In this document: positions 1 through 42,719 of the stretch, in pieces
How the letters are laid out: every line of letters starts with the position of its first letter
How positions within the stretch are numbered: position 1 is the stretch's first letter
Assembly: GCA_963661055.1 (NCBI GenBank)
Contig: CAVLAC010000001.1
Coordinates: 1-42,719 of the forward strand
Length of the DNA stretch: 42,719 bases
From: a bacterium
GTDB taxonomy: Bacteria; Verrucomicrobiota; Kiritimatiellia; RFP12; UBA1067
Reading direction: 5' to 3'
The notes under the pieces: model-generated
Databases searched by the model: none
What the model saw: the letters and a program-made list of their open reading frames with translations, nothing else
What the model was told of the DNA's origin: nothing
Position numbers and translations under genes: made by a program

Positions 1-71
1 CTGCCGCGCAGTTCGTGAAAGACCTCAAAGCCGCCTACGCCCAACGCGCCGCCATCCGCCACGCGAAGTAG
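1..71 (+). CDS. 3' end of an unidentified CDS entering from the left window edge (partial)
   Basis: The frame starting at nt 3 is open from the edge to TAG at 69-71 (AAQFVKDLKAAYAQRAAIRHAK*). Codon third positions are GC-rich like the neighbouring genes. A GC hairpin follows. Too short for a functional call. Confidence 0.35.
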   Translation, partial: AAQFVKDLKAAYAQRAAIRHAK

Positions 72-72
72 C

Positions 73-94
73 GGTCACGCGGGGACGCGTGACC
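73..94 (+). terminator. GC hairpin between convergent genes, candidate intrinsic terminator
   Basis: 9-bp perfect stem GGTCACGCG/CGCGTGACC with a GGGA loop, followed by CTACCTTTGATCTTTG (T-containing but not a clean U-tract). Confidence 0.4.
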
Positions 95-152
95 CTACCT
101 TTGATCTTTGACAATTGAATTTCTGAATAGCCCCCTTAAAATCCAAGAAGGC

Positions 153-980
153 TCAGAAGCCTAGGAGGTGGAGGTAGGCGGAAACGAGTTCGGGGCCGTA
201 GAACATCCAGGCGAGGCAGCCGAGGCAGATGTAGGGCCCGTAAGGAATTTCCACGAACTTGCCGAGGCGTGCTTTCGCGGCAAGGATAAGCCCTACGCCC
301 ACAATTGAGCCAAAAATCGACGAAAGCATAAGGACGATAAAGACGGCAAGAGGTCCGAAGAGTGCCCCCACGGCACCCATCAAGAAGACATCCCCAAGCC
401 CCATCGCCTCACGCTTAAAGGCTTTCGTTCCCAAAAAGCGAATGAGCCAGAGGAGTCCGAACCCAAAGGCGAGTCCACTCAGTGAGAAAAGCGGTGAGAT
501 ACCAAATGGCGCGAGGTTGAATTCATAGCCGAAGTGCCGCGCAAGTGCCGCGCCGAGGCTTAGGACGACACCATAAATCATCCCTCCGACTGTAACAAAG
601 TCAGGAAGAAGCTTATGGTCAAAGTCAATGAAGCTCCCGACCAGCATTAGAGCGAGCCATACCCACGAGAGTGGCGCGGCAATTCCAAAGCGTGCGTAGG
701 CGGCAACAAAGAGAGCTCCACCCAAGAATTCGACAAGCGGATACCGTGCCGAAATCGGGTTTTTGCACGCGGCACATTTTCCGCGCAAGGCGACCCATGA
801 GAGGATAGGAATGTTCAAATACCACGGAATTGCCGCGTTACACTTGGGGCAATGCGAGGGCGGCGAGACAATGGACTCTCCGCGCGGCACACGCCAAATG
901 ACGACATTCAAGAAACTCGCTAGGCACGCGCCAAAAGCGAAGATGAATGCGTAAAGCCAAGGTGTCGGCAAGAGGTGCAT
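153..980 (-). CDS. Prepilin peptidase (A24 family, PilD/GspO-like)
   Basis: 275 aa and polytopic. It has the N-terminal Cys box CPKCNAAIPWYLNIPILSWVALRGKCAACKNPISARYPLVE typical of type IV prepilin peptidases, plus the GLGDV motif region. Confidence 0.88.
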   Translation of the reverse strand: MHLLPTPWLYAFIFAFGACLASFLNVVIWRVPRGESIVSPPSHCPKCNAAIPWYLNIPILSWVALRGKCAACKNPISARYPLVEFLGGALFVAAYARFGIAAPLSWVWLALMLVGSFIDFDHKLLPDFVTVGGMIYGVVLSLGAALARHFGYEFNLAPFGISPLFSLSGLAFGFGLLWLIRFLGTKAFKREAMGLGDVFLMGAVGALFGPLAVFIVLMLSSIFGSIVGVGLILAAKARLGKFVEIPYGPYICLGCLAWMFYGPELVSAYLHLLGF

Positions 981-983
981 CCG

Positions 984-1970
984 TTATTCGCTCTTCAGGT
1001 CGCGGCTCATCATCGCCGATACAGCGTCCGCCGCATTATAATTCTCGTAGCAAAGCGCATAGACGAGATTACAAATGGGCATTTCGACCCCGAGTTTGGC
1101 GGCGAGATCGTGGATAACTTTCGCGTTCCATACGCCTTCCGCCACCATCTGCATAGAGCCGAGAATCGCGTCAATTTTCTCGCCTTTGCCAAGGCGTTCG
1201 CCGACGGAATGATTGCGTGAATGAACCGAGGTACAGGTGACAATCAAATCACCCACGCCCGCGAGCCCACTCATTGTCTCAGGCGTGCCGCCATAGGCGA
1301 GAACAAAGCGCTTCATTTCAGCGAGCCCCCGCGTAATAAGTGCCGCGCGGGTATTGTCACCAAAGCCCATACCGTCCGAACAGCCAACGGCAATGGCGAG
1401 GACATTCTTAACCGCTCCGCCAATTTCTACGCCGACGGGGTCTTTGGAAGTATAGACGCGGAAGGTCGGCCCCGACCAAATGCGCTGGACGCGCTGCGCC
1501 TTTTCCTCATCCTCACACGCCGCGACAATGGCGGTTGGAATGCCGCGCGAGACTTCCTCGGCGTGGGTGGGGCCCGCGAGAGCGACGACGCTCTTTAGCC
1601 CGAGAATCTCCTTCGCGAGCTGGGTCATCCGTTTGTTGGTTTTCTCGCAGAGTCCCTTTGTAAGCGAAACAACGAGGTGGTCATCGGTGATGAGTCCCTT
1701 AAAGCCCTCGATAACGGATGCAAAATACTTCGAGGGCGGCGCGAGCACCACGACTTCCGCACCCGCGAGTGCCGCGTTGCGGTCGCTTGTGAGACTTAGC
1801 GACTCGGGCAAAGTGACGCCCTTCAGGAACTTGTCATTACGCCGCGTGCGGCGCATTTCCTCGATGTAATCAGGGAACGCCCCCCAGAGCGTGACTTCGT
1901 TGCCGTAGCCCGCGAGCAAAAGTGCATTCGCGGTGCCCCATCCGCCATCACCAATAACTGCTATTTTCAT
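984..1970 (-). CDS. gpsA: NAD(P)H-dependent glycerol-3-phosphate dehydrogenase
   Basis: 328 aa. N-terminal Rossmann motif [14 protein letters not shown] and full-length GpsA-like sequence ([12 protein letters not shown]). Confidence 0.92.
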
Positions 1971-3154
1971 AAGATATGCCCCATTTTTTCGCGCTTAGTC
2001 TCAAGATAACGGCGGTCGTATTCGGTCGGCGCAATGACAATCGGCACGCGCTCGACGATTTCGAGTCCGTAGCCATCAAGTCCGACGACCTTGCGCGGAT
2101 TATTTGTCATTAGGCGCAACTTCTTTACGCCGAGATCTGCCAAAATCTGTGCGCCCTCGCCATAATCGCGCAGGTCAGGGGCGAAACCAAGGGCGACATT
2201 CGCCTCGACGGTATCGAGTCCCTCCTCTTGCTTGCGGTAGGCGTGAAGTTTATTGGCAAGCCCAATGCCGCGCCCTTCTTGGCGCATATAAACGACCACG
2301 CCGCGCCCTTCTTTCTCAATCATTTGGAGGGCGGTATGGAGTTGCGGACCGCAATCGCACCGCTCTGAGCCGAGCACATCGCCTGTGAAGCATTCGGAAT
2401 GCACGCGAGCAAGTACAGGCGCGTCACTTGTGAGGTCGCCCTTGATAATCGCCAAATGCTCAAGCCCCGTCAAGCGGCTACGATACATCTTGAGACGGAA
2501 GTGTCCGTAGGAAGTGGGCAAATCCACATCCTCGACGGCCTCGACGAGCTTATCATACCGCCGCCGATAGGCGATGAGGTCGGCAATGCGGAGCATTTTG
2601 AGGTTGTGCTTGCGAGCAAATTCGATATGGTCGGGAAGCCGCGCCATAGAGCCATCATCGCGCATAATCTCACAGCAGAGCCCTGCTTCCTTAAGCCCCG
2701 CGAGACGAATCAAGTCCACAGTCGCCTCGGTGTGCCCCGCGCGCTTAAGAACGCCGCCTTCGCGTGCACGCAGTGGGAACATATGACCTGGACGGCGAAA
2801 ATCACGGCCCTTCGCATTCGGGGCAACAATGGCGCGCGCCGTAATGCCGCGCTCGGCGGCTGAAATGCCTGTCGTCGTCGCCACCGCGTCAATTGAGACG
2901 GTAAAGGCGGTATGGTGATTATCGGTATTCTCGCTCACCATCTGAGGCAAATCAAGCGCATCGCAAAGTGCACCCGACATCGGCATGCAAATGAGTCCCT
3001 TGGCGTAAGAAGCCATGAAGTTCACATTTTCGGTTGTCGCGAACTCCGCCGCGCAAATGCAATCGCCCTCATTCTCGCGGTCTTCGGCGTCCGTCACCAA
3101 AATGATTTCGCCGCGCCGCAGGGCTTCCAAGCACTCTTCAACAGTATTAAACAT
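1967..3154 (-). CDS. ribBA: Bifunctional 3,4-dihydroxy-2-butanone-4-phosphate synthase / GTP cyclohydrolase II
   Basis: 395 aa. The RibB half contains DRENEGD and the RibA half contains [19 protein letters not shown]. 4-nt overlap with gpsA. Confidence 0.93.
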
Positions 3155-3166
3155 GCAAAACCTTTC

Positions 3167-3778
3167 TTACGAACCTGGGTGCACGGGGTGCGAGCCCGCC
3201 TTGCAGAGGGGGCACTCGGCGGGCTGCCAAGTTTCAGGTGTCATCTGCATAAGCGAAAACATCGGGATAGAACCAAACGAAACCTTGTCGCCCGAGCGAT
3301 CGACGAGCAGAACAACTGCCGCGACTTCGCAACCCGCATTCTTCACGAGGTCGATTGTCTCTTGGACGCGCCCACCCTTGGTGACCACATCTTCCGCGAC
3401 CACATAGCGTTCGCCCGGCTTCAGCGTAAAGCGGCGCATGGCGAGGATGGTATTGGGCTTGCCTGTCGCGTCCACGCCTTCACCCTGCACCTTCTCGGCG
3501 AAGACGCACTTCGTATCGAGGGCGCGGGCGACTTCGTGTCCGACAAGGATTCCGCCGACGGCAGGGGAAATGACACCGTCAATCTTGCCAATATCACATC
3601 CCGCTTTCATCTTCTCGACGACCGCGTCGCAGAGTTTTGCCGCGATACGCGGATAGCGCAGGACATTCGCGCATTGAAAATAGCGGTTTGAATGGAGTTT
3701 TGAGCGCAATTCGAAGTGCCCTTCGAGGAGGGCTCCTGTTGATTTAAACGCTTCGAGTACTTCAGCTTCGGTCATCAT
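3167..3778 (-). CDS. pyrE: Orotate phosphoribosyltransferase
   Basis: 203 aa. PRPP-binding loop VVAEDVVTKGGRV and PyrE-like N-terminus (LLEGHFELRSKLHSNRYFQ). Confidence 0.85.
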   Translation of the reverse strand: MMTEAEVLEAFKSTGALLEGHFELRSKLHSNRYFQCANVLRYPRIAAKLCDAVVEKMKAGCDIGKIDGVISPAVGGILVGHEVARALDTKCVFAEKVQGEGVDATGKPNTILAMRRFTLKPGERYVVAEDVVTKGGRVQETIDLVKNAGCEVAAVVLLVDRSGDKVSFGSIPMFSLMQMTPETWQPAECPLCKAGSHPVHPGS

Positions 3779-3791: not shown

Positions 3792-4283
3792 TCAATCTTC
3801 TATTTTTAGTAATTCAGCACGAGTAAAGGGGTTCGTATCTTTAGGCGCGGTTGCCTCATTTTGGGCAGGTATCACGCGCGGCGCAGGGGCGGCGAGGGAA
3901 AGTGGGCGCGGCAAGGGTGCGCGGCGGTTGGGGCGCTCGAGGTGACCCTCCACACAATCCTTTAGGGCAAGGACGCTCACGGGCTCGCTCTCGGGCAAAT
4001 CAAGTGCCGAAAGATCCACCGTATGGGCACGCGCTTCAGCGAGCCCTGGTTGCCACGCCGAGCGAATCGCCTTAATCGCGGCAAGTTCCTGCGCGGGCTC
4101 AAGGGAAATCAAAGCGCCGAAAGCAGGTGCGGGCGCGGCACTTGGGCTCGTGAGGGTCGTCGGGAGGGAGCGCAAAGACGAATACATCAAAAGCGCGAGC
4201 GCGGCAGGGACAGCAAATGTCAGGAGAAGTGAGAGGAACTCACTCCGCAAACGCCGCTGAGGTCTATACGCGCTTTTGCTCAC
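3792..4283 (-). CDS. Hypothetical membrane-anchored Pro/Ala-rich protein, last gene of the ExbB/ExbD-like operon (possible TonB/TolA-like spacer protein lacking a recognisable C-terminal domain)
   Basis: 163 aa with one N-terminal TM helix (FLSLLLTFAVPAALALLMY) followed by a Pro/Ala-rich region. 4-nt overlap with the ExbD-like gene. Confidence 0.5.
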   Translation of the reverse strand: MSKSAYRPQRRLRSEFLSLLLTFAVPAALALLMYSSLRSLPTTLTSPSAAPAPAFGALISLEPAQELAAIKAIRSAWQPGLAEARAHTVDLSALDLPESEPVSVLALKDCVEGHLERPNRRAPLPRPLSLAAPAPRVIPAQNEATAPKDTNPFTRAELLKIED

Positions 4284-4759: not shown

Positions 4760-5376
4760 GCGGCAGACCCTTTCGCGGGGGCATTCTTCGTCGCGAAGTA
4801 GCTCACGATGGAAGTCGCGGCAGCTTCGAGATTGTAAACAATGCGGTCGACACGCAACTTAAGCGAGGCGTGCATAACGATAACGGGAATCATCACGCCC
4901 AGCCCCAAGGCGGTGGAAAGAAAGGCGGGGGTCGCGGCACTTAGGAGATCCGCACGCGAAACGAGCACTTCGCTATTAATGAGCATCAAAGAACGCACAA
5001 AGCCAAGGACTGTGCCGAGAAGCCCCAGAAGTGGCGCAATGCGTCCGATTAGCGCGAGAGTCGCGAGTCGGCGATAAAGGCGACTCACAATGACGCGTCC
5101 TTGGGCATCCACGGCTTCCCGCAAGATATGTACGCCCGCCTCGCGGCGATGGATGGCGCACGCCATAAGTTCCGCGACCGGTACAGGCGTATCCTCGCAA
5201 ATGGCGAGCGCCTCATTTTCATTGCCGCTATCAAGCACATTAAAAACGCCCTTGGCAAAGTCCTGCCAATCAATTTGGGCGCGGCGCAATTCGAAGAAGC
5301 GGCTCAGAAAGACGAGAACCGCGACGAGCGCGAGTGCCAGAAAAATCCAATACATAGGGTTATCAAAGGTAATCAT
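4756..5376 (-). CDS. MotA/TolQ/ExbB family proton channel
   Basis: 206 aa with the family signature IAPLLGLLGTVLGF and 3 TM segments. Confidence 0.85.
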   Translation of the reverse strand: MITFDNPMYWIFLALALVAVLVFLSRFFELRRAQIDWQDFAKGVFNVLDSGNENEALAICEDTPVPVAELMACAIHRREAGVHILREAVDAQGRVIVSRLYRRLATLALIGRIAPLLGLLGTVLGFVRSLMLINSEVLVSRADLLSAATPAFLSTALGLGVMIPVIVMHASLKLRVDRIVYNLEAAATSIVSYFATKNAPAKGSAA

Positions 5377-7460
5377 TAGTAGAGCCCTCCCGTCTGCAAT
5401 TTATCAATACGCCGCTCAGCCTCGACGGCTGCAGGGACATCGCTTGCCGCGACAAGTTCCAGAATGCGTTCCGCCTGCCGCTTGAGTCCGCGTCGCTCAT
5501 ATTCATCAGCGAGGCGAAAGGCGGCTTTCACAAAGACCGCGCGGGCTTCATCATCAAAGACGACTCCCGCGAGGCGATTGGAGCGGTAAGACAAAACCAC
5601 ATTCGTATAATATTCGTCGAGTGCCCCCTCGAGGCGCCCCATCTTCTCAAGCGTACGCGCCACTTTATAGGCGACAACGAGGCGGCGAGACGGAGGCAAC
5701 GCTTCGCCTTGCCCAATCATATGGTAAGTGAGAAGTGCTTCCTCATAGCGCGTCGGATTATCCGCGCCCATCGCGAAGAGAGCGTCCGCCTTCAGCATCC
5801 GTGCCGTCAAGCGGTCGGCGGCGGAATCTACCGAGGCCTCAAAAGCACGGTCAAGAACGAGAATTGCCTCCTCAAAACGCGCGAGGGCAATGAGCGCTTC
5901 GCCCTGCACGAGATACGCGGCAAAAGCATCCTTCGCCTTCGGGTAGTCATTGAGGCACTTGGTACTCAGTGTCACCGCATTCTCAAAAGCCCCACCCGCA
6001 TATGCCGCGCGAGAAGCCCAAATGAGAGCCGTAGCCGCCTCGGGATTCGGGGCAATGCTCGCGGCATATTCTTCAAAGAGTTTTGCCGCCTCGTGCCACC
6101 GCGCTTGGCCGTAGGCGTACTTGGCAAGCCAATGCTTCGCCTTATTGCGTGCTTCGGAATCTTTTGCCTGCAAAGCGAGTTCCTTCGCCTTGGCGAGCGC
6201 TTCCTCATCGCGGTTGAGCCCATAGAGGCAAAGAATATCAAGATATGCCATCTTATCCGCACGCGCAGGGTCTTCCTTGGCAAGTGCCGCGAAAAGTTTG
6301 CGCGCCTCGCCAAATTGGAAGGTGCGGTAGAGTTCGCGTCCGCGTGTTTCCATATCCTTGAGCTTCACGAGAACAGCGAGTTTCTTTCCAGCGGGGGTAT
6401 CGGGGTACTTAGAAAGGACAAGCCGATAGCGTTCCATTGATTCTTCGGCACGCCCTGCTTCCGCAAGCATATCGCCCTGAGCGAGAACGATTTGCGCCTG
6501 CTCAAGGGCATTCGTCGTACAACTTTCCGCCGCGCTAAAAGCGTCCATCGCCTCATCAACACGCCCCAACTTACGGAGCGCCCACGCACGCTCTTCCTGC
6601 ACCGCGCCATTCTTGGCAAGCGTCGGCCAAATCTCGAGGGCATCCCGATAAGCAGCAACCGCGTCTTCGTTACGGTCAGCCACCAATAAAGCATGGGCAT
6701 AGGCGAGGAAAGCGGGCTGGACATCATACCTATCGGGGTGGCGTTGCGCGGCAGTTCGGATTACCTTTTCCGCGTCACTTACCTTGTTGGTATCGGCAAG
6801 GTCGTGTACGGCGACCTGCAAAGCCAATTGATTTCGCGCAATTTCGAGCTTTACTTGCGGAATTAGGTTCGTAATTAGCGTATAATCATCCAATTGAAGT
6901 GCCGCCATTACCCGCGCAAATTCCTCGGTTTTGGGAGATTCGGCGAGGGCACGCCAAATGGCTTTCGCACGGTTGGTCTCGCCTTGTGCCGCGTAAATCT
7001 CGGCGGCGACGAGTTGCTCGGGAGTTCCGCCCTTCTCAAGTTCCAACTTTTCGGCTAGGGAATCGGCTTCCTTAATTTTGCCGCGCTCAAGGAGGAGTGC
7101 CGCCTGAAGAGCCCCCGCGCGGCACTTTTCTTCGGCGAACGCGAAGTCCGTTTTCGCCAAAAGAGCGATACATTCGTCCGTTTTGCCTAGTTTCGCGAGG
7201 GCGAAGGCACGATAGAAGACGAAGGAAGGCGTTGCCGCGTCGCCCCAGCCATCAATTTCCTTAATAATATCCTGCCAGCGCTGTTCATTCGCGTAGCTCT
7301 CAAGCGTGACGAGCCGCGCCTCATCCTGGGGCAACTCGCGCGCATGGGTTCGGGCAATGGACCAGAGTCCGTCTCGAAGTGCCGCGCGGGAAACGGGGGG
7401 CGTCCCCGCCGCGATCGCGGCAGTTGCGAGAAGAACGGAAGCTAGCAGTACCTTACGCAA
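5376..7460 (-). CDS. Secreted tetratricopeptide-repeat protein
   Basis: 694 aa. Signal peptide MRKVLLASVLLATAAIAAG, then Ala/Leu-rich TPR-like helical repeats throughout. 1-nt overlap with the exbB-like gene. Confidence 0.7.
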   Translation of the reverse strand: MRKVLLASVLLATAAIAAGTPPVSRAALRDGLWSIARTHARELPQDEARLVTLESYANEQRWQDIIKEIDGWGDAATPSFVFYRAFALAKLGKTDECIALLAKTDFAFAEEKCRAGALQAALLLERGKIKEADSLAEKLELEKGGTPEQLVAAEIYAAQGETNRAKAIWRALAESPKTEEFARVMAALQLDDYTLITNLIPQVKLEIARNQLALQVAVHDLADTNKVSDAEKVIRTAAQRHPDRYDVQPAFLAYAHALLVADRNEDAVAAYRDALEIWPTLAKNGAVQEERAWALRKLGRVDEAMDAFSAAESCTTNALEQAQIVLAQGDMLAEAGRAEESMERYRLVLSKYPDTPAGKKLAVLVKLKDMETRGRELYRTFQFGEARKLFAALAKEDPARADKMAYLDILCLYGLNRDEEALAKAKELALQAKDSEARNKAKHWLAKYAYGQARWHEAAKLFEEYAASIAPNPEAATALIWASRAAYAGGAFENAVTLSTKCLNDYPKAKDAFAAYLVQGEALIALARFEEAILVLDRAFEASVDSAADRLTARMLKADALFAMGADNPTRYEEALLTYHMIGQGEALPPSRRLVVAYKVARTLEKMGRLEGALDEYYTNVVLSYRSNRLAGVVFDDEARAVFVKAAFRLADEYERRGLKRQAERILELVAASDVPAAVEAERRIDKLQTGGLY

Positions 7461-7462
7461 AA

Positions 7463-8428
7463 TCAGATTTCTCCACCTAAATAGCCCATTTCAGCGAGAA
7501 TGCGCTTGTTTTCCATCCAATTGCGCTCTTCCTTGACCTGCATCTTGAGGGTGACCTTGAGTTCAAAGACTTGGCGCAATTCGCGTTCCGCCTCTTCGCG
7601 CACCTTCTTAATGACCGCCCCGCCTTTGCCAATCACAATCCCGACTTGCGATTCACGGTTGACGAGAACATCCACATTGACCTTCCAGCGCTTATCCGTT
7701 TCTTCAATGGACTTCACGCATATCCCGAGTTCGTGTGGGATTTCGCGGTACATATGACCAATAAACTTCTCACGGATAATATCCGCGATGGTAAGGCGGC
7801 GGGGGTAGTCCGTAACGACATCCTCGGGGAAGAGCAATTCGCCAGGCTCGGCGAGCGAAAAGAGTGCGTCCAAAGTGGCATTTTCGCCACCCTCAGTCGA
7901 AGCAATCGCCTTCACCCAAATGGGCTCAGGCACGGGAAGTGCCGCGTCCGCACCTTCGACAGGGGTGGTTTTAAGCGCTTCTTCCCACGCCTCGTGGTAC
8001 ATCGTCTCAAAGAACGGCTTTTTATCCGCTTTATTGAGCACAAACACCACCTTTGACGGACGCTCCTTGGCGACGCGATTCATCCAGCCCGTATCTTCCA
8101 TCTGGGGTTCCTCGGCGGCATCAAAGACGACGCAGAGGATATCCACTCCCGCGGCACTTCGGCGTGCCATACGGTTGAGGAGGGTTCCAAGATGCCCCTG
8201 CGCCTTATGAAGACCAGGGGTATCGAGAAGGACGAGCTGTCCGCGTGGATCAGCCACAATGCCGCGCACGGTATTGCGGGTCGTTTGTTCAACGGGCGAG
8301 ACGATAGAGATTTTCTCCCCGACAAGGCGGTTAACGAGGGTAGATTTACCCGCGTTTGTGCGCCCGACGATGCCCACGACGGCAACGAGCGGCTTCTTTT
8401 CGGTTTCTGTACTCGGCGTATCGCTCAT
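7463..8428 (-). CDS. era: GTPase Era
   Basis: 321 aa. G1 motif GRTNAGKST, G3 DTPG, G4 NKAD and a C-terminal KH domain (GKGGAVIKKV). Confidence 0.92.
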   Translation of the reverse strand: MSDTPSTETEKKPLVAVVGIVGRTNAGKSTLVNRLVGEKISIVSPVEQTTRNTVRGIVADPRGQLVLLDTPGLHKAQGHLGTLLNRMARRSAAGVDILCVVFDAAEEPQMEDTGWMNRVAKERPSKVVFVLNKADKKPFFETMYHEAWEEALKTTPVEGADAALPVPEPIWVKAIASTEGGENATLDALFSLAEPGELLFPEDVVTDYPRRLTIADIIREKFIGHMYREIPHELGICVKSIEETDKRWKVNVDVLVNRESQVGIVIGKGGAVIKKVREEAERELRQVFELKVTLKMQVKEERNWMENKRILAEMGYLGGEI

Positions 8429-17756: not shown

Positions 17757-17767
17757 GGACAAAATAA

Positions 17768-31872: not shown

Positions 31873-32270
31873 TCGAGACTCACGGGGCGGCGATTCGCCT
31901 TCTTTTCCGCGTGCATACGCTTATCGGCAAGCATCCGTTGCTTTTGCCGCCGCGAGCGCCGCCGCTTCTGGCGGCGTTTCTTCTCACGGAGCTGTTGCGC
32001 GGCACTTTTGCGTCCCTGCTCCCTCGCCAAAATAGCTTCCGCGAGCATACGCCGCGCAAGCCACCGATTCGTTTCGCGACTACGCGTTTCCCCACACCGC
32101 ACGGCGAGTCCGCTCGGCTCATGGGCAAGGCGCACGACACTGGAGGTCTTGTTGGTCTTTTGTCCGCCAGGACCGCCCCCCAGAATGAAAGTCTCCTCCA
32201 AATCCTCTTCAAAGACCGAGGCTTCGACCATTAAGGCGCGAATACTCGCTATTTTCTCAGGAGAAATCAT
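31869..32270 (-). CDS. arfB: Peptidyl-tRNA hydrolase ArfB (GGQ-domain alternative ribosome-rescue factor)
   Basis: 133 aa. GGQ motif [13 protein letters not shown] plus a strongly basic C-terminal tail ([18 protein letters not shown]). Its stop codon overlaps the SNF2 stop codon (shared TTAA). Confidence 0.8.
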
Positions 32271-36576: not shown

Positions 36577-37599
36577 TTACCACGCATAGCCGAGACCGAC
36601 AATGTAACGGATGTCGCTCGACTTGCGTCCCTCGCTCGGACGAGAATTGTACTCCCACTCAATCTTAGCGATGAAGTTGAAGTCCATAATAATCTTCGTC
36701 GTGAACCCAACATCCGCCTTCATGATGTAGTGTTCCCAGTCATCAATTTGCGGATAGTACTCGAGATTGTGGAATCCATTCACGCCCTCGTTCCATTTCG
36801 GAACATAGGTGAGGTGGTGGGCATAACGAAGTGCCGCGTAGCTTTCGTCGCCATTTGCAGGACGGATATGATAGTTATCACGAAACCAAGTTGCACCAGC
36901 CTCTTGGTTGAAGCTCCAAACACCCGTCGTCTCAAAACGCCGCGCATCAAGCCACTGATAGCCAACGCCCAAACCGAGACGGACGCGATTGTCGAGTCCC
37001 GCGATGGAATCTTCCTCATAACGCGCATTCTCGAAGGTGTAGACGGCGGGACGCCAGAAGTGGTCGTGTTGACCCTCAACCTCCCAGCGGTCGGTCGTTT
37101 TATCGCGGTCAGCCTTAGAAGTGCCTGTTTCTGAATAGTAGTAGCCAAAATCAGCATTGACGCGGTCTTCTTCCCAACGGCGATTGACATTCGCAATCAA
37201 AGAAGCCGAATTCTGGTAAGTATTGCCGCGCGCGGCAGTATAGGAGGCATTCACCGACCCGTGCCACGTCTCAACGCCAGGGTCAATCGCCTTGACATTC
37301 GCCGTATCAAGGGGCTTGCCCTCAGCAATGAAAACTCCGTTCGAGACGGTCATCGACTTCGTCTCGCGGGACATATCCGTATACTGCACGGTATGGTCGT
37401 GGGGCGTATCCAAGGACGCAATCTTCGCGAGGGGCACTTCAATATCCCCAAGGTCCTCGGAGGCAAAGACGAGTTTATCACCCTTCACAATACCCGCCGT
37501 ACCCGACAAACGCGAACCCGAAAGAAGCGTCAGGGTATCCGCCGAAACCATTGCGCTTACAAAAAGCGCGCTAACTACTAGAAGAGAACGCATTTTCAT
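36577..37599 (-). CDS. DUF481-type (YdiY-like) outer-membrane beta-barrel protein
   Basis: 340 aa. Signal peptide MKMRSLLVVSALFVSAMVSA, alternating beta-strand pattern and terminal aromatic residue (GLGYAW). Confidence 0.6.
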   Translation of the reverse strand: MKMRSLLVVSALFVSAMVSADTLTLLSGSRLSGTAGIVKGDKLVFASEDLGDIEVPLAKIASLDTPHDHTVQYTDMSRETKSMTVSNGVFIAEGKPLDTANVKAIDPGVETWHGSVNASYTAARGNTYQNSASLIANVNRRWEEDRVNADFGYYYSETGTSKADRDKTTDRWEVEGQHDHFWRPAVYTFENARYEEDSIAGLDNRVRLGLGVGYQWLDARRFETTGVWSFNQEAGATWFRDNYHIRPANGDESYAALRYAHHLTYVPKWNEGVNGFHNLEYYPQIDDWEHYIMKADVGFTTKIIMDFNFIAKIEWEYNSRPSEGRKSSDIRYIVGLGYAW

Positions 37600-39257
37600 C
37601 AGTTATTATTTGAGTTTACTTCAATAAATGGGATATTTATATTCACTTTTGAAGTGACATTCGTACGTTGCGGGTCAGCATACTGCTCTTCAAGCCCACG
37701 CATATCAAGCGACTGCATACCTTCCGCCATTCGTGCGCCACGATCACCTGGCTCTTGGCGAATCTCATCCGTATAAAGACGCCCTAACACCGCATTCTTC
37801 GGCAACCCAGCATCTTTACGGATGTTTTTCGGATCAATTAAGCCCACCGTAACGAAAACGATAATTTCTGTCTGCTTCTTAATGCGAGTACGCGAACCGA
37901 AAAGACGAGGTCCAATCCACCACCAATCGCGAAGCCAAGGAATGCCGCTATCCACTTGCTGTTCAACCGTGCGCGAAAGCCCACCAATTACAGCTGTGGT
38001 CTCACTCGCCATATTAAACTCAGTAATCAAGCGTTGAACATTAATGACAGGATATTTTGCTGAATAAGTGGAATCACTAGAAGAGGAAGATTTAGACGAA
38101 GAGGCTTCATCTGTACTCGCTGTAACATAATCCGTGCAGTCGCTAATAGTCGGAACAATTTGAACATTGATAAGTCCGTTTGTACCAATGCGCGGCGTTA
38201 CTTCCAATGAAATACCCCAGCTAAAGAACGCTTCCTTAGCGAACATAAACTTATCCTCGCCAGGAATTTGCGCCATCTTCATATCAAGATCGGTAGAGAG
38301 CTGATTATTGGAAGAAAGTGTCTTTTTCGCGGCAATTGTGACATTTGGATACTTTGTTGTCATATCCACCGTTGCCTTCTTGCCAGAAGTAACAATAATC
38401 TTCGGATTCGAGAATGTTCGCGCATCTTCACTCGTTTCCAATGCCCTCAAAATGACATACAATTCACTCATACCAATCGTGGCATTGAGATGGGAAAGAT
38501 TTGCTGCATTGCCATTAGGTGAGGCTGTTGCGCTGTCAATTGTATAGGTATCACTTGATGAATCATAGGTTGAGACGCCTTTAAACCGCCGCGTATTGTA
38601 ACCAGCATCAAGTCCCATAGAGCCGCGCATACCGTCCAACATCTGCCAATCAATACCGAGCTTATGAGAGGCGTTATTTGAAAGTTCTACAAAACGGGCT
38701 TCGATGTACACTTGTTGAGGCTCAATATCAATCTCATCTACGATATGTTGGCAAGTATCGAGCACCATCTGGGGGGCAGTCACCATAACCGCATTCGCCT
38801 CAGGGAACGCCTGCGCCATTTTGGAGACCTTCCAAGCCGTACCAAAGTCTCCGCTCCAAGTCGCGTTAAACTTTTCGGCAACTTCCTCGGCATTAGCGTG
38901 GGCAAGCCTAAAGACACGAGTAGAAATCCGCCGCTGGTCAAGGGCATCTTCCGCAATCTTCGCCGCCCGCGCCTCAGCCTCCAAACGCGCCGCTTCACTG
39001 CCGCGAGCCGTCGCTTCTAGCCGCGCCTGCTCCACCGCATTCGACGCCGCCACACGAATCGCCGCCTCAACTGCCGCGTCCACCCCCGTAGTTAGGGGGT
39101 CCGCAACTGCCGCGTCCGCAGCCAAATTCGCCGTATCATTCGTGACGACGAGTACAACGGGGTCTTTTACGAGATTAACCCCCTCATCCGCCTCAGGGAC
39201 GATAGAGGCTTTTGCCGCGCTCATCGCGGCAAATAGGCTAAGCGCGGCAATTATCAT
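37599..39257 (-). CDS. Secretin (type II/III secretion system / PilQ family outer-membrane channel)
   Basis: 552 aa. Signal peptide, Ala/Glu-rich N-terminal helix and secretin C-domain (VIGGLSRTVEQQVDSGIPWLRD...EIIVFVTVGLIDP). Contains a Ser-rich insert SSSKSSSSSDS. Confidence 0.8.
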   Translation of the reverse strand: MIIAALSLFAAMSAAKASIVPEADEGVNLVKDPVVLVVTNDTANLAADAAVADPLTTGVDAAVEAAIRVAASNAVEQARLEATARGSEAARLEAEARAAKIAEDALDQRRISTRVFRLAHANAEEVAEKFNATWSGDFGTAWKVSKMAQAFPEANAVMVTAPQMVLDTCQHIVDEIDIEPQQVYIEARFVELSNNASHKLGIDWQMLDGMRGSMGLDAGYNTRRFKGVSTYDSSSDTYTIDSATASPNGNAANLSHLNATIGMSELYVILRALETSEDARTFSNPKIIVTSGKKATVDMTTKYPNVTIAAKKTLSSNNQLSTDLDMKMAQIPGEDKFMFAKEAFFSWGISLEVTPRIGTNGLINVQIVPTISDCTDYVTASTDEASSSKSSSSSDSTYSAKYPVINVQRLITEFNMASETTAVIGGLSRTVEQQVDSGIPWLRDWWWIGPRLFGSRTRIKKQTEIIVFVTVGLIDPKNIRKDAGLPKNAVLGRLYTDEIRQEPGDRGARMAEGMQSLDMRGLEEQYADPQRTNVTSKVNINIPFIEVNSNNN

Positions 39258-39802
39258 ACGTTCATCAACCCTGCGAGGAAGGAGTCCTTGGCTTGCACTT
39301 CGTCAGGCGTGAGCCCCTCAATTTCGTGGGGGAAGACAATCCAGTCATTGCCGACATCCTTCACAAAGTAATCGGGCTTAATCTCGGTGATATTCTTCTC
39401 AGGCTTCCAGTAGACACAAGCCATACGCATTTCCGCGCCTGTCTCATTGATGCGGTTCTTGACCGCACGCGCCGTTTTGCCAGTATCAAAGACATCATCG
39501 ACGACAAGGACCTTATCGCCCTTACGCATCATCGCGAAGATTTCCTCGCCGAGCGTAAAGATGACTTCACCCTTATTTTCACCAATTCCCGTATAACTCG
39601 CGCATTTTAGTGGAATATGTTGCACATTCCACCCAACCGCACGAAAATACTCGTGGATAGAAACACCAACTGCCGCGCCACCCCGCCAAAGCGCAATGAG
39701 CAAATCAGGCTTCCATCCCGACTGCTTAACCGCCGCGGCTAAACGCCAAGAGTCCCTCTGGAACTCATTGGCGCTTAAATAGTGCTTCGCAACTTCTGAC
39801 AT
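39254..39802 (-). CDS. Purine phosphoribosyltransferase (Gpt/Hpt-like)
   Basis: 182 aa with the PRPP loop VLVVDDVFDTGKTA and Gpt-like topology. Substrate not assignable. Confidence 0.7.
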   Translation of the reverse strand: MSEVAKHYLSANEFQRDSWRLAAAVKQSGWKPDLLIALWRGGAAVGVSIHEYFRAVGWNVQHIPLKCASYTGIGENKGEVIFTLGEEIFAMMRKGDKVLVVDDVFDTGKTARAVKNRINETGAEMRMACVYWKPEKNITEIKPDYFVKDVGNDWIVFPHEIEGLTPDEVQAKDSFLAGLMNV

Positions 39803-39822: not shown

Positions 39823-40863
39823 TTAGTTCTTGTAGGTGACGACACCCTTGCCCTTACGGACCACGCCGATAATCGAGTAAGGCTGCTTCTGTCCCTTGAG
39901 CGCCGATTCCACCGTCTTCAAGTCGCGCTTGCCGACAATGAGGACGAAACCGATGCCCATATTAAAGACGCGATACATTTCGTCACGGTCGACCTTGCCC
40001 TGATTCTGAATGAACTTGAAGATGGTCGGCACTTCCCATGTCGAGCGGTCAATTTCCGCATTGCAGACCTTAGGAAGGACGCGCGGGATGTTGTCGGGGA
40101 AGCCACCACCCGTGATGTGCGCCATGCCGTGAATCTTGACCTTGCGCTCCATAATCTTCATTACGGGCTTCAAGAAGCTGCGGTGCACCGCGAGAAGTGC
40201 GTCGCCGAAAGTCTGATTCGTGCCAGGAACCTTATCCTGCCACGAATAACCACACAAATCGAAAATGACGCGGCGGGCGAGCGAATAGCCGTTCGTCTGA
40301 AGTCCGCCTGAGGGCAAGCCAATAATGACATCTCCCGCACGAATGGACTTGCCCGTCACCAAATCATTGCGCGAGACGTGCCCGACGATGGTGCCGACGA
40401 GGTCATATTCGCCGAGCGGATACAGCCCTGGCATTTCCGCCGTCTCACCGCCGAGAAGCGCCATCTTATTTTCCTTGCACGCTTTGCAGAGTCCCGCGAC
40501 AACTTGGCTAAACTGCCGCGCATCAAACTTCGCCGCGCCCACATAGTCCATAAAGAAGAGCGGCTTTGCACCCTGCACGAGGATGTCGTTGACGCAGTGA
40601 TTAACAATGTCTTGTCCGACGGTATCGTGCTTATTCATCATGCACGCAATCTTGAGCTTCGTGCCTACGCCGTCCGTCGAAGCGACGAGGAGCTGATCCT
40701 TGCCCGCTGGCACTCTGTGAAGTCCGCCAAAGGAACCAATGCTCCCAATGACACTCTGGGTCTTCGTGCTATTCACCATTGACTTAATCGCGGTGAGAGC
40801 AGCCATCTTATTGTCGATATTCACGCCAGACTGGGCGTATGCGGACTTCTTTTCGGGTATCAT
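39823..40863 (-). CDS. purM: Phosphoribosylformylglycinamidine cyclo-ligase (AIR synthase)
   Basis: 346 aa with DGVGTKLKIA and GAKPLFFMDY motifs. Confidence 0.93.
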   Translation of the reverse strand: MIPEKKSAYAQSGVNIDNKMAALTAIKSMVNSTKTQSVIGSIGSFGGLHRVPAGKDQLLVASTDGVGTKLKIACMMNKHDTVGQDIVNHCVNDILVQGAKPLFFMDYVGAAKFDARQFSQVVAGLCKACKENKMALLGGETAEMPGLYPLGEYDLVGTIVGHVSRNDLVTGKSIRAGDVIIGLPSGGLQTNGYSLARRVIFDLCGYSWQDKVPGTNQTFGDALLAVHRSFLKPVMKIMERKVKIHGMAHITGGGFPDNIPRVLPKVCNAEIDRSTWEVPTIFKFIQNQGKVDRDEMYRVFNMGIGFVLIVGKRDLKTVESALKGQKQPYSIIGVVRKGKGVVTYKN

Positions 40864-42135: not shown

Positions 42136-42180
42136 GGGCAGTCCCTTGCCCGCCGCGTATAAGAGGTTAACAATTCCACT

Positions 42181-42204
42181 CTTCAACTTCAACTTGAACT
42201 TCAA
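42181..42204. repeat. 6-bp tandem repeat x4 (CTTCAA CTTCAA CTTGAA CTTCAA)
   Basis: Read directly from the sequence. Confidence 0.8.
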
Positions 42205-42206
42205 CT

Positions 42207-42321
42207 CTCTCTGTGACTCTGTGCCTCTGTGTTTAAAACATACCCACACCCAAGCCCCGAAGGGGCTCTCTAAAATCTCTCTGCGAGCTCTGCGCCTCTG
42301 CGTGAGATAAACCCACCACCC
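42207..42321. repeat. Two ~45-nt related modules 70 bp apart (CTCTCTGYGASCTCTGYGCCTCTGYG...ACCCACMACCC)
   Basis: Module A is 42207-42251 and module B is 42277-42321. Between them lies the small hairpin AGCCCC-gaa-GGGGCT (42253-42267). Confidence 0.7.
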
Positions 42322-42371
42322 ATTTCTCATTTTAACTTTTTCAATCGCTGTTTTTTGCCGCGCTAAAAATA

Positions 42372-42441
42372 TTTCTAGGCTTTCTAGAACTTCTAGCTTC
42401 TCTAGCCTAGAACTTCTAGCCAAATCTAGCCCTTCTAGAAT
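42372..42441. repeat. Array of 8 CTAG-centred motifs (consensus TTCTAGMM) with ~9-bp period
   Basis: CTAG at 42375, 42384, 42393, 42402, 42407, 42416, 42426 and 42435. Followed by the AT-rich core CTTATATATATACCTTATAAG (42446-42466). Confidence 0.85.
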
Positions 42442-42480
42442 CGCCCTTATATATATACCTTATAAGCAACGCTTTTTTCA

Positions 42481-42508
42481 CCTCTAGAACGACTAGAAAA
42501 TCTAGCCC
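42481..42508. repeat. Second array of 3 CTAG-centred motifs with 9-bp period
   Basis: CTAG at 42484, 42493 and 42502. Two further copies lie at 42676 and 42684. Confidence 0.8.
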
Positions 42509-42719
42509 CATACCCCCACACTTTTGACCCCCAAAATCACCCCTCGCCGACCACCCCCAAAAACGCTCCAAAATCGTCCATTTTGAGACACCTCGAAAAT
42601 CTCGATTCTGAGAGGGGTTTAGGAGTGGGGGCTATCACCCTACACAAAAACTCTTCGGAGCCCGCTACGAGCCTCCTAGACCCCTAGAAACGCGTTTTTA
42701 GAAGCGACCTCCGCCGCAA

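Follow-up and report, generated by a model that had tools for sequence, protein, structure and literature searches.

A lineage-specific, uptake-sequence-like word in gut Kiritimatiellae

Genes of the window and copies of the word

The DNA that we examined, referred to as the window herein, is one 42,719 nt contig of a gut Kiritimatiellae metagenome-assembled genome (MAG). In addition to priA, SNF2 and Fic genes, it holds the prepilin peptidase, pilin/pseudopilin-like and secretin genes listed in Table 1 as context only. Throughout this contig we found AAGTGCCGCG 24 times (15 on the plus strand, 9 on the minus strand), versus 0.25 on average, and never more than 2, in 100 dinucleotide shuffles, and AACTGCCGCG 18 times (13 and 5; shuffle mean 0.23). 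The original prediction had listed the same coordinates, all of which were reproduced, as a lower bound from a manual count; that count was already complete. Both forms belong to a broader motif, AA-N-TGCCGCG (AAN herein), with 58 copies in the window (1.4/kb), in which N is G in 24, C in 18, T in 9 and A in 7. An order-3 Markov model predicted 3.2 copies of AANTGCCGCG where 58 were observed (P = 5e-51). The TGCCGCG core, with 152 copies (3.6/kb), is the commonest 7-mer of the window.

Variants with one mismatch at a fixed position reached at most 4 copies each, versus 24 for the word. Sequence information is confined to about 11 positions around the window copies, and the word is therefore not a repeat element. 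It is non-palindromic and used in both orientations, and dispersal of the core is nearly random (variance/mean 1.25 in 1-kb bins). Ala-Ala is encoded by 113 of the 152 cores. As had been described, the frames are mostly nnC GCG GCA STT or nnA AST GCC GCG; the copies at 7118 (KCR(A)) and 532 (ARHF) are exceptions. The two copies in a duplicated promoter fall within a 32-bp direct repeat that has no mismatches. Nearly all window copies are coding, and inverted pairs in the window are no commoner than copy density predicts.

The Fic islet, the AT-rich part of the secretin gene and the SNF2 gene had been described as showing no exact copies. The SNF2 gene (5 cores, one AAATGCCGCG) and the secretin gene (7 cores plus 4 AAN copies, none outside its 5' half) do contain the motif. 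The putatively foreign Fic gene has no AAN copy but is just 1 kb long and adjoins an islet gene with 3 cores, so that the word is only weakly depleted in putatively foreign DNA.

Table 1. Copies of the word, bare cores and pilus-type genes in the window
Feature	Position	Strand	Context
Prepilin peptidase gene	153..980	-	A24_N_bact, Peptidase_A24; context only
AAGTGCCGCG	532..541	+	within the prepilin peptidase CDS, antisense; frame ARHF
AAGTGCCGCG	543..552	+	antisense, GGC GCG GCA CTT = GAAL
AATTGCCGCG	675..684	-	sense, GGA ATT GCC GCG = GIAA
AATTGCCGCG	828..837	+	antisense, NAAI
AAGTGCCGCG	1338..1347	+	antisense, RAAL
AACTGCCGCG	3314..3323	+	antisense, VAAV; L003/L004 write VAAV as GTC GCC GCG GTC
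AAGTGCCGCG	4134..4143	-	sense, CCA AGT GCC GCG = PSAA; all relatives differ in amino acids
AAGTGCCGCG	4933..4942	-	sense, CTA AGT GCC GCG = LSAA; L078 LSAA = CTG AGC GCG GCG
AAGTGCCGCG	6282..6291	+	antisense, FAAL; FAKL/FADL/FAEL in relatives
AACTGCCGCG	6747..6756	-	sense, CGA ACT GCC GCG = RTAA
AAGTGCCGCG	7118..7127	-	off-frame, sense, AAG TGC CGC GCG = KCRA
AAGTGCCGCG	7377..7386	+	antisense, RAAL
AACTGCCGCG	7416..7425	-	sense, GCA ACT GCC GCG = ATAA
AAGTGCCGCG	7937..7946	+	antisense, DAAL
AAGTGCCGCG	8150..8159	-	sense, CGA AGT GCC GCG = RSAA; L003 RSAA = CGC AGC GCC GCG
AAGTGCCGCG	9376..9385	-	sense, GGA AGT GCC GCG = GSAA; L003 = GGC AGT GCG GCC
AAATGCCGCG	10320..10329	-	sense, PNAA
AAATGCCGCG	10449..10458	-	sense, VNAA
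AAATGCCGCG	11570..11579	+	antisense, LAAF
AATTGCCGCG	11780..11789	+	antisense, SAAI
AAGTGCCGCG	12424..12433	+	antisense, GAAL
AACTGCCGCG	12655..12664	+	antisense, LAAV
AACTGCCGCG	12826..12835	-	sense, GTA ACT GCC GCG = VTAA
AATTGCCGCG	13432..13441	-	sense, EIAA
AACTGCCGCG	13552..13561	+	antisense, GAAV
AAGTGCCGCG	14043..14052	+	antisense, SAAL
AAGTGCCGCG	14924..14933	+	antisense, LAAL
AACTGCCGCG	15098..15107	-	sense, CTA ACT GCC GCG = LTAA
AACTGCCGCG	15778..15787	+	promoter spacer, first 32-bp repeat copy 15767-15798; - strand TTGCTT-GAGCGCGGCAGTTTTGG-TATAAT
AACTGCCGCG	17736..17745	+	non-coding, second 32-bp promoter repeat copy 17725-17756
AAGTGCCGCG	18704..18713	-	sense in priA, ESAA
AACTGCCGCG	19647..19656	-	off-frame, sense, GAA CTG CCG CGC = ELPR
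AAGTGCCGCG	20024..20033	-	sense, QSAA
AATTGCCGCG	20372..20381	-	sense, GIAA
AAGTGCCGCG	20399..20408	+	antisense, SAAL
Pilin/pseudopilin-like gene	20645..21373	-	N-terminal methylation motif; context only
AAGTGCCGCG	22537..22546	+	antisense, VAAL
AACTGCCGCG	24355..24364	+	antisense, DAAV
AAGTGCCGCG	24457..24466	+	antisense, LAAL
AATTGCCGCG	24538..24547	+	antisense, DAAI
AACTGCCGCG	26854..26863	+	antisense, GAAV
AACTGCCGCG	26875..26884	+	antisense, LAAV
AAGTGCCGCG	27073..27082	+	antisense, RAAL
AAATGCCGCG	27118..27127	-	sense, GNAA
AAGTGCCGCG	27445..27454	-	sense, ASAA
AACTGCCGCG	27715..27724	+	antisense, AAAV
AAATGCCGCG	30435..30444	+	sense, KNAA; sole AAN copy of plus-strand SNF2 gene
AAGTGCCGCG	31998..32007	-	sense, KSAA
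AATTGCCGCG	33189..33198	+	antisense, GAAI
AAATGCCGCG	34814..34823	+	core = half of 14-nt palindrome TGCCGCGCGCGGCA at 34817
AAGTGCCGCG	36250..36259	+	antisense, SAAL
AAATGCCGCG	36343..36352	+	antisense, LAAF
AAGTGCCGCG	36829..36838	+	antisense, YAAL
Secretin gene (GspD/PilQ-like)	37599..39257	-	below family cut-offs; context only
AATTGCCGCG	38328..38337	-	secretin gene, sense, TIAA
AACTGCCGCG	39069..39078	+	secretin gene, antisense, DAAV
AACTGCCGCG	39105..39114	+	secretin gene, antisense, DAAV
AATTGCCGCG	39243..39252	-	secretin gene, sense, IIAA
AACTGCCGCG	39668..39677	+	antisense, GAAV
AACTGCCGCG	40511..40520	+	off-frame, antisense, ARQF
TGCCGCG/CGCGGCA bare core, 94 further copies	1..42719	both; all 152 cores = 91 +, 61 -	7-mer count

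Distribution and turnover among relatives

Enrichment beyond the window, on which the original prediction depended, was found. Of 80 related species compared, a strong signal of the word is confined to the window, L078, L002 and L034, which fall into two non-sister groups; about 100 kb of motif-bearing sequence was covered in all. L208, a second and non-syntenic contig of the L034 MAG, has 9 copies versus 0.31 expected. The nearest relatives have 0 copies versus 0.38 expected (L003) and 4 versus 0.70 (L004; P = 6e-3), and at orthologous sites they encode identical peptides by other codons, or different amino acids. About 60 relatives with similar proteins average 0.77 cores/kb and have essentially no 10-mers. 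The word is lineage-specific. For it to occur in two clades that are not sisters, its putative reader must have been transferred, or the lineages between them must have lost it.

Copies were gained through both synonymous and non-synonymous substitutions, with gains exceeding losses: comparing the window with L078, and using L002 as outgroup, we counted 13 lineage-specific gains and 4 losses. Motif sites were kept more often than background 10-mers, both in L078 (59% vs 36%) and in L002 (29% vs 14.5%), and a relative at 80% nucleotide identity has 8 of 28 sites in common.

Non-coding copies occur in promoters in the window and in terminators in relatives, where the inverted pairs downstream of genes that had been suggested were also found. 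In clade B, 6 of 12 and 5 of 9 AAN copies are intergenic. Inverted cores in L208 form terminator-like hairpins followed by T-runs (10275-10300, 10312-10335 and 91-112), and a further inverted-core hairpin in L034 (~3233-3252; dG -21.6, z -3.3) has no T-run. One clade thus employs the word in terminators, outside coding DNA.

Codon usage and palindrome avoidance

The coding copies were compared with a codon-pair null, a first-order codon Markov model that was fitted to the same window genes and kept the amino-acid sequence fixed (300 runs). This null did not reproduce the counts: it yielded 3.7 copies of AAGTGCCGCG (maximum 9) versus 24 observed, 2.1 of AACTGCCGCG versus 17, 8.7 of the AAN motif versus 57 and 58.7 of the core versus 148, while a synonymous shuffle gave 0.5 copies of AAGTGCCGCG. 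Together with the non-coding copies, this disposes of the extreme codon-context bias that had been offered as an alternative. AAL tripeptides are written C GCG GCA CTT in 14 of 34 cases and SAA tripeptides A AGT GCC GCG in 8 of 22; AAV was converted in 10 of 18 and TAA in 4 of 12, so that conversion of host tripeptides in the window spans 33-56% across both orientations, which are saturated to a similar degree. Of 15 AGT/ACT-GCC-GCG sites, 12 have a wobble A in front of them, versus 12% overall and 20% for the remaining AGT/ACT codons, and rare codons such as CTA, CGA, CCA and GGA are recruited to supply it.

The window strongly avoids GGCC, CCGG, ACGT and CCGCGG. One reading would do without any dedicated signal and derive the word from proteins rich in Ala-Ala, a preference for GCG codons, codon-pair bias and the scarcity of GGCC, CCGG and CCGCGG. 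The preponderance of Ala-Ala cores fits this, as does the GCG-GCC codon pair, which is never used (0 vs 29 expected), so that Ala-Ala is written more often as GCG-GCA or GCC-GCG. The 4-mers in greatest excess are TGCC and CCGC, a maximal-order Markov model predicts 116 cores versus the 152 observed, and the near absence of G directly after the word in the window is accounted for by CCGCGG avoidance. However, the codon-pair null falls well short, the AA flank and wobble bases are left over, and the motif is also present in L034 and L208, which do not show the avoidance. Since L034 shows observed/expected ratios of 0.68 for GGCC, 0.97 for ACGT and 1.37 for CCGCGG, palindrome avoidance was ruled out as the cause. 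The relatives with similar proteins and the intergenic copies likewise contradict an origin with no signal, which we consider extremely improbable. The signal lies at the level of the DNA, and neither codon usage nor codon pairs nor palindrome avoidance accounts for it.

Candidate drivers of the amplification

Strand use in the window is skewed, with a raw excess of 36:22 among AAN copies, and AGTGCCGCG is antisense:sense 51:17 when pooled over four loci. A non-palindromic, GC-rich, species-specific word with such an excess, abundant in housekeeping genes and conserved above background, could be a Chi-type recombination or repair signal, recognized by RecBCD/AddAB or some other enzyme that processes DNA ends, and maintained for repair of the cell's own DNA. 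We regard this as unlikely, as the skew vanishes when host-peptide availability is allowed for: conversion was 46% vs 35% in the window and 37/99 vs 19/77 over five pooled loci (p = 0.08). L034 has genes on both strands, and there the word's orientation follows the direction of transcription and not one fixed strand. Chi uses common codons and occurs about once per 5 kb; the enrichment seen here, about 20-100-fold with rare codons and amino-acid replacement, is far stronger. The ten specified bases also exceed any known Chi (5-8 nt).

Hyper-abundance, even dispersal, occurrence in coding and non-coding DNA and conservation above background would also suit a site, kept by selection, to which an abundant protein binds throughout the genome, for instance to structure the chromosome. 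This has been proposed for cyanobacterial HIP1, which is hyper-abundant, dispersed and conserved above background (PMC5861425). HIP1 is palindromic, as are typical dimer sites, whereas the Kiritimatiellae word is not. Selection would be weak when spread over thousands of sites that are each dispensable, yet rare codons and amino-acid changes are paid; turnover is fast, and the closest relatives, which lack the enrichment, would need a different chromosome structuring. Such a site is therefore a doubtful explanation.

The excess of gains over losses could instead have arisen neutrally, as a side effect of repair or gene conversion with a sequence-specific bias. A mismatch nuclease that works together with a mobile DNA methyltransferase, for example, could turn near-matches into matches. 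The patchy spread over two non-sister clades, whose MAGs come from a single project, fits horizontal transfer of the gene responsible, and the very strong avoidance of restriction-type palindromes in motif-bearing clade A genomes points to a heavy, mobile restriction-modification load. Known very-short-patch repair acts on one position of a 4-6 bp context with about two-fold bias or less, whereas nine positions are sharply specified here, with no excess deficit of transition variants. As the window genes include no methyltransferase or Vsr-like gene, and L034 and L208 have the word without strong palindrome avoidance, we find this origin improbable.

We favor, with a probability of roughly 0.55, an uptake-sequence-like word amplified by sequence-specific drive, likeliest through biased DNA uptake and recombination. 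The name uptake-sequence-like withstood all the sequence-level tests run (both orientations, rare codons, amino-acid replacements, lineage specificity, enrichment beyond the window, and inverted pairs downstream of genes in relatives). AA-(G>C>T,A)-TGCCGCG would have been amplified to about 1-1.4 copies/kb (core 3.6/kb) in a few gut Kiritimatiellae lineages, in which a surface DNA receptor of a competence/type IV pilus machinery would prefer fragments with the word. Such fragments would be taken up and recombine into the chromosome, so that mutations creating or improving a copy would be over-transmitted, and copies would pile up where proteins tolerate them (Ala-Ala-Leu/Val, Ser/Thr-Ala-Ala) and in intergenic hairpins. 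We infer that DNA uptake would be the driver, a pilus-associated protein the reader and the bacteria naturally competent; the pilin/pseudopilin-like protein of the window belongs to a candidate class for the receptor, and the window's prepilin peptidase, pilin-like protein and secretin, as type IV pilus or secretion components, fit this reading. The proposed link to the window's own pilus genes was not upheld: the one pilus cluster seen, of the Amuc_1098-1102 type and accompanied by a secretin, is in a relative without the motif, and pilus genes therefore do not explain the specificity of the word.

If this reading is correct, these bacteria may favor DNA from their own kind over other DNA during uptake. 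A literature search returned no paper on uptake or transformation in Kiritimatiellae, and the word would thus appear to be the first of its type for this phylum. We know of no described uptake sequence as dense as the bare 7-mer core at 3.6/kb, which counts against the uptake reading. The same applies to the weak depletion in putatively foreign DNA, to the nearly exclusive coding location and lack of surplus inverted pairs in the window, and to the spread over two non-sister clades. The suggested kinship with the Pasteurellaceae USS is unsupported, since just AAGTGC is shared and the phylum is different. Host tripeptides are roughly doubled in USS/DUS systems, whereas those of the window showed no clear inflation over motif-less relatives, given permuted control tripeptides. 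Published USS and DUS are nonetheless similar in density, coding-frame behavior and accommodation via amino-acid change (PMC2817400), and the mechanism of the Neisseriaceae DUS and Pasteurellaceae USS is the model that we propose for the Kiritimatiellae word.

Abundance and coding context of the word

Exact counting recovered every coordinate reported for the word in the original prediction. AAGTGCCGCG was found 24 times in the window (15 on the plus strand and 9 on the minus strand; dinucleotide shuffles: mean 0.25, maximum 2), and the variant with C in the third position, AACTGCCGCG, was found 18 times (13 plus, 5 minus; shuffle mean 0.23). By k-mer counting these are the two commonest 10-mers of the window, while the core TGCCGCG/CGCGGCA is its commonest 7-mer (n = 152, one per 280 bp). 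A position table over the 152 cores yielded AA-N-TGCCGCG, in which the next base is C or A and hardly ever G, with an information content of approximately zero around the cores outside positions -3 to +7. The form with any base in third position, AANTGCCGCG (AAN), is present 58 times, with G in 24, C in 18, T in 9 and A in 7 copies. As the other single-base variants of AAGTGCCGCG number only 0–4 copies each, the motif is sharp. Its density is 0.98 per kb for the G and C forms combined (AAS) and 1.36 per kb for AAN. The 39 genes of the window are closely packed and for the most part housekeeping; 38 are on the minus strand, and two tRNA-Arg genes and a tmRNA are also present. We rejected a dispersed repeat element (REP, MITE or CRISPR), as the flanks carry no information and the spacing of copies in the window is near-Poisson with no preferred distance. 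Only two 14-nt palindromes made of two abutting cores are present in the window.

Of the cores, 113 of 152 encode Ala-Ala, either as nnT GCC GCG in the sense direction (52) or as nnC GCG GCA with the word antisense (61), and Ala-Ala codon pairs are very skewed (observed versus expected: GCG-GCA 72 versus 15, GCC-GCG 63 versus 29, GCG-GCC 0 versus 29). Short palindromes are strongly avoided in the window (observed/expected: GGCC 0.13, CCGG 0.10, ACGT 0.13, CATG 0.27, GATC 0.36, CCGCGG 0.21). This avoidance explains why TGCC and CCGC are the most over-represented 4-mers, explains part of the codon-pair skew, including the missing GCG-GCC, and, through CCGCGG, leaves G nearly absent after the word. 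It does not account for the word itself. L034, a locus of a related species, carries the motif at the same density as the window with only mild avoidance (GGCC 0.68, ACGT 0.97, CCGCGG 1.37). Avoidance is also very strong in two other related loci, L078 and L002, the latter avoiding the 4-mer palindromes but not CCGCGG, and is mild (0.6–1.0) in most of the 80 related species. Such strong avoidance suggests a heavy, lineage-specific restriction-modification load; biased repair tied to a mobile methyltransferase or nuclease is nevertheless, in our view, an unlikely source of the word.

The original prediction weighed an uptake-like word against extreme codon-context bias, and held that shuffles preserving codon pairs should not reach the observed counts. 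Synonymous-codon shuffling of the window genes gave 0.5 copies of AAGTGCCGCG versus 24 observed. A first-order codon Markov model, conditioned on the proteins and trained on the same window genes, gave 3.7 copies (maximum 9 in 300 runs) versus 24, 2.1 versus 17 for AACTGCCGCG, 8.7 versus 57 for AAN and 58.7 versus 148 for the core. The word therefore survives this test, and the codon-bias half of the proposal falls away. Since a null that keeps proteins, codon usage and codon pairs falls this far short, we consider a compositional artefact very improbable.

Positions beyond the Ala-Ala codons are fixed at the level of the DNA. The wobble base ahead of AGT/ACT-GCC-GCG is A in 12 of 15 cases, versus 12% of wobble positions overall and 20% of those before other AGT/ACT codons, and this A comes from rare codons such as CTA, CGA, CCA and GGA. 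A single codon string encodes 14 of 34 AAL tripeptides (C GCG GCA CTT), 10 of 18 AAV and 8 of 22 SAA (A AGT GCC GCG), and the word form accounts for 4 of 12 TAA. Totals of these host tripeptides exceed those of the syntenic relatives L003 and L004 (30 versus 20 and 39 versus 29, respectively), with permuted controls raised alike (45 versus 32 and 59 versus 50).

The window contains 52 AAL or AAV and 34 SAA or TAA tripeptides, of which 46% and 35% are converted to the word, and the larger supply of the former explains the raw 36:22 strand excess of AAN. Pooling five loci, 37 of 99 and 19 of 77 are converted (p = 0.08). L034 has genes on both strands, and there word orientation tracks the direction of transcription and not one DNA strand. 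Together, the conversion rates and the L034 orientation speak against a Chi- or KOPS-type polar signal. Like Chi, the word is asymmetric, GC-rich, taxon-specific and over-represented in core genes. Unlike Chi, it is longer, far more enriched, built from rare codons and, in the loci compared, has no replication-strand polarity once coding constraints are controlled for. Chi is recognised by RecBCD/AddAB, and the sequence examined contains no genes for these enzymes. A Chi-like repair signal therefore appears improbable.

Distribution among relatives and turnover of copies

The window encodes a ribose-5-phosphate isomerase B domain fused to serine hydroxymethyltransferase (RpiB-SHMT), which matches proteins labelled by their sources as Kiritimatiellae bacterium MAGs. 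A genome-collection scan for SHMT homologues (416 hits) provided 80 related species, nearly all gut or rumen MAGs, and the fusion is matched over its full length (residues 1–559, 79–99% identity) in all 80. Across these loci the word is abundant in only four places: the window, L078 (CAVCJC010000025; SHMT 98.7% identical to the window; 27 AAN copies in 19 kb), L002 (CAVCAF010000034; 95%; 20 copies in 17 kb) and L034 (GCA_963629255.1; 86%; 12 copies in 12 kb). In approximately 60 other species the core density is 0.77 per kb and the 10-mers are practically absent. L003 (DJRS01; SHMT 92%) has 0 copies and L004 (DBKW01; 91%) has 4 versus 0.7 expected. By SHMT identity L034 groups with L023 and L038, two loci that are only faintly enriched; judged from this one protein, the strong carriers would form two non-sister groups, clade A on the side of the window and clade B comprising L034 and L208.

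A second contig from the MAG of L034, L208, was reached from the window's aldolase gene and shares with the window only the aldolase-purM pair. It contains 9 AAN copies in 10 kb versus 0.31 expected, and L209, reached by the same walk, contains 5 copies in 3 kb. These counts show that enrichment of the word reaches beyond the window and also beyond the region syntenic to it. Enrichment beyond the window, as had been anticipated, is thus borne out on L078, L002, L034, L208 and L209, with L034/L208 being non-syntenic. The motif-bearing DNA examined amounts to about 100 kb in all, and the motif-rich public MAGs all carry isolate names of one project (H076xx-L1_cleanbin). As a separate observation, GC skew is extreme in L208 and is -0.04 in L034 from the same MAG.

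The flanks of the word vary between carriers. Clade B favours AAAA(A/T)N-TGCCGCG-G, while the window and L078 favour AAN-TGCCGCG-(C/A); G follows the core in 5–8% of cases in the window and L078, and in 40% in L002, which tolerates CCGCGG. Two genome-wide forces thus meet on the same bases, with a 3' G present where CCGCGG is tolerated and almost never where it is avoided.

Wider scans identified no further carrier among the matches listed. A motif-pair scan of metagenomes (CGCGGCASTTN{0,30}CGCGGCASTT) returned at least 120 stretches; those listed were either fortuitous pairs or local tandem repeats, on unrelated, mostly soil-type contigs with no new motif-rich genome among them. The same scan of IMG/VR gave 36 contigs, none with dispersed copies; one of its contigs, L230, has ten copies mostly clustered in one repetitive gene. 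Exact-protein look-ups for the window's surroundings returned only 2-kb Logan contigs or nothing. The best-scoring FBA homologues (P0121, P0124 and P0126) were rejected as relatives on the basis of GC content, flanking genes and motif absence. Apparent dialects of the word in L047, L075, L050, L066, L035, L058, L026 and L063 were frequent 10-mers that proved to lie in local iteron-, tandem- or CRISPR-like arrays and were not dispersed. The 9-mer GAGGCGCTG (complement CAGCGCCTC) is enriched in L070, L061, L043, L080 and L027, with 5–8 copies per locus (order-4 Markov expectation 0.5–0.8 in L043, L061, L070 and L027) and 30 of 32 copies on the gene-sense strand. It was rejected as a counterpart word in L070, L061 and L043, being dispersed but nearly all on one strand and hence a different phenomenon: it reflects either Glu-Ala-Leu codons in frame or, in another sub-lineage, a polar word resembling Chi.

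At sites orthologous to window copies, the same tetrapeptide is written with other codons in 7 (L003) and 9 (L004) cases, for example RSAA as CGC AGC GCC GCG and GSAA as GGC AGT GCG GCC, and the amino acids differ in 11 and 16 cases. Copies therefore arise by synonymous and replacement substitutions, as USS and DUS copies do (PMC2817400). Taking L002 as the outgroup, we counted 13 lineage-specific gains against 4 losses in the window and L078; all three genomes have seven sites in common, and L002 has seven of its own. At the LSAA copy at 4933, three synonymous changes separate the window from L078. Word sites are retained more often than random 10-mers (59% versus 36% in L078, 29% versus 14.5% in L002). 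New copies are still arising, and the word is put to further use in intergenic hairpins.

Non-coding copies, hairpins and candidate imports

Approximately 97% of the window's AAN copies are coding. The only two non-coding copies, at 15778 and 17736, sit in the 17-nt spacer of a promoter duplicated as a perfect direct repeat flanking the low-GC Fic islet, which is present in L078 and missing from L002, L003 and L004. Read from the sequence, each repeat copy is a minus-strand promoter with an extended -10 element. As this 9-mer, TGGTATAAT, also recurs in L013, L020, L031, L064 and L080, it is probably the promoter consensus of the clade. The 21-nt units beside the duplicated promoter resemble operators and include CCGCGG, which is otherwise avoided in the window.

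In clade B, 6 of 12 (L034) and 5 of 9 (L208) AAN copies are intergenic, and inverted cores form terminator-like hairpins. The inverted pairs downstream of genes that the original prediction suggested seeking thus exist in these relatives; in the window, all inverted pairs lie in coding DNA and are no commoner than chance.

Coordinates of repeats, hairpins and other features in the window and in related loci
Feature	Location	Strand	Details
Perfect 32-bp direct repeat TATTATACCAAAACTGCCGCGCTCAAGCAAGG	window 15767-15798 and 17725-17756		copies 1958 bp apart, enclosing the Fic/HTH gene plus one without family match
Extended -10 element TGGTATAAT	window 15768, 17726, 18463, 22444, 42001	minus	upstream of genes or the tmRNA
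Three tandem 21-nt units AAAATAAGACCGCGGTCTTAA	window 17761-17823		each with a GACCGCGGTC-type palindrome
12-nt tandem repeat, TTTTCTGNWNAG-like	window 15994-16116		about 10 units, within the Fic-domain gene
Non-coding right end	window 42360-42480	minus (view)	rich in CTAGAAG / TTCTAG words (ctagaagttctag...)
RpiB-SHMT fusion	window 8431-10110		one 559-aa protein
Pilin-like protein (generic)	window 20645-21373		
Class II aldolase (FBA) gene	window 40957-41955		
Terminator-like hairpin, inverted cores	L208 10275-10300		GGGGCGCGGCAGATTTGCCGCGCTTT then T-run
Terminator-like hairpins, inverted cores	L208 10312-10335 and 91-112		each then T-run
Terminator-like hairpin, inverted cores	L034 3233-3252		directly after the ilvD stop; dG -21.6 kcal/mol, z = -3.3; without T-run
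Extreme GC skew	L208 1-10448		+0.18 to +0.50 in 1-kb windows; G >> C on the coding strand
Akkermansia-type type IV pilus cluster	L206 1774-9462		directly upstream of the aldolase gene
Array of repeated 10-20-mers, CRISPR-like look	L050 2942-3590		period about 78 nt
Arrays of repeated 10-20-mers, iteron-like look	L047 497-623; L066 8579-8711; L035 4208-4278; L058 6968-7106; L063 9763-9873		22-23-nt periods

In the putatively acquired genes, a small sample, the Fic gene has 0 AAN copies and 1 core, and the other islet gene has 3 cores. The aldolase gene has no cores versus approximately 3.5 expected, holds 3 of the 33 GGCC and 3 of the 20 CCGG sites of the window, and has its closest homologue (96%) in the motif-less lineage L206 (GCA_963612485.1); it may be a recent import. 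The L206 pilus cluster, which includes Amuc_1102, PilM_2, Amuc_1100, a TSP3 protein and a 1067-aa secretin, was not found at the window's right end. The window does encode pilus and secretion parts, as had been pointed out, namely a prepilin peptidase, a pilin-like protein and a secretin. Since L206 lacks the motif yet has a pilus cluster, such genes do not account for the specificity of the word.

Interpretation and comparison with known systems

The word is a driven, DNA-level feature. To our knowledge, the only other DNA words described with its combination of traits (a sharp asymmetric 10-mer in both orientations, lineage-limited, with codon and amino-acid cost and hairpins) are the Neisseriaceae and Pasteurellaceae uptake sequences, and we therefore rank an uptake-sequence-like mechanism first, with a probability of roughly 0.55. 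In those two families, biased uptake through the competence pilus and subsequent recombination act as a molecular drive, which would here have amplified the word. We know of uptake sequences from only two proteobacterial families. More speculatively, the word may mark a third, independently evolved system, the first outside Proteobacteria, with a specificity common to two non-sister clades of one sequencing project; a reader gene or tagged DNA would then have moved between species, making the word a gene-flow barcode within a gut guild.

Uptake sequences anchor the debate on whether bacterial DNA uptake reflects molecular drive or selection for conspecific DNA, and their generality could be put to the test if a case of independent origin exists in a gut phylum that is distant and uncultured. 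Such a case would also predict natural competence in Kiritimatiellae, on which the searched literature reports nothing; nor did that search yield a paper containing the word except within primers, or any that deals with uptake sequences of this phylum. In practice, DNA supplied with the word might be used to transform these organisms, and the word could serve as a native marker for contig binning and for recognising genes of recent import. Should uptake not be the cause, a sharp asymmetric 10-mer at such density would suggest a sequence-specific drive, or a reader acting genome-wide, that is as yet undescribed.

One candidate of the latter kind is a site for a genome-wide binding protein, as with cyanobacterial HIP1 (GCGATCGC). 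Like HIP1, the word is hyper-abundant and short, tens- to hundred-fold over-represented, located in coding sequence and conserved above background (PMC5861425). A recent preprint reports that HIP1 raises transformation efficiency (bioRxiv 10.1101/2024.09.10.611283). HIP1, however, is a palindrome, tied to two methyltransferases and phylum-wide, while the word is asymmetric and limited to a few species, and we assign a HIP1-like site a low probability.

Neisseriaceae DUS are recognised by the minor pilin ComP, and uptake is DUS-dependent. Like DUS, the word is a non-palindromic 10–12-mer occurring about once per kb in both orientations in housekeeping genes, and its flanks differ between lineages in the manner of DUS dialects (AAN...[C/A] versus AAAA(A/T)N...G). 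The transcription terminators formed by inverted DUS may have a counterpart in the terminator-like intergenic hairpins of clade B. The word bears no resemblance to the DUS dialects themselves, as cited in PMC3630211. In N. meningitidis, only about one DUS in three falls within an ORF (PMC2817400), unlike the predominantly coding copies of the window. AAGTGCCGCG is also unrelated to GCCGTCTGAA, and its host belongs to the PVC superphylum, not to Proteobacteria.

USS inflate the encoded tripeptides in the proteome about two-fold, and are absent from recently acquired genes. Like USS, the word lies mostly inside genes, in a few preferred frames and tolerant tripeptides, beyond what codon usage predicts. 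Its copies are likewise made by codon choice and amino-acid replacement at variable positions, and its density is similar to that of the H. influenzae USS, with 1,471 copies (PMC2817400). An A-rich flank beside a GC-rich core is a further likeness, although in the word the short A-rich 5' flank is found only in clade B. Unlike USS, which have AAGTGCGGT or ACAAGCGGT cores with phased AT-rich flanks, it has no helically phased AT tracts. The proposed likeness to the Pasteurellaceae signal thus holds for behaviour and not for sequence, as only the hexamer AAGTGC is common with AAGTGCGGT, most likely by coincidence. The word belongs to neither the DUS nor the USS family, but behaves like both.
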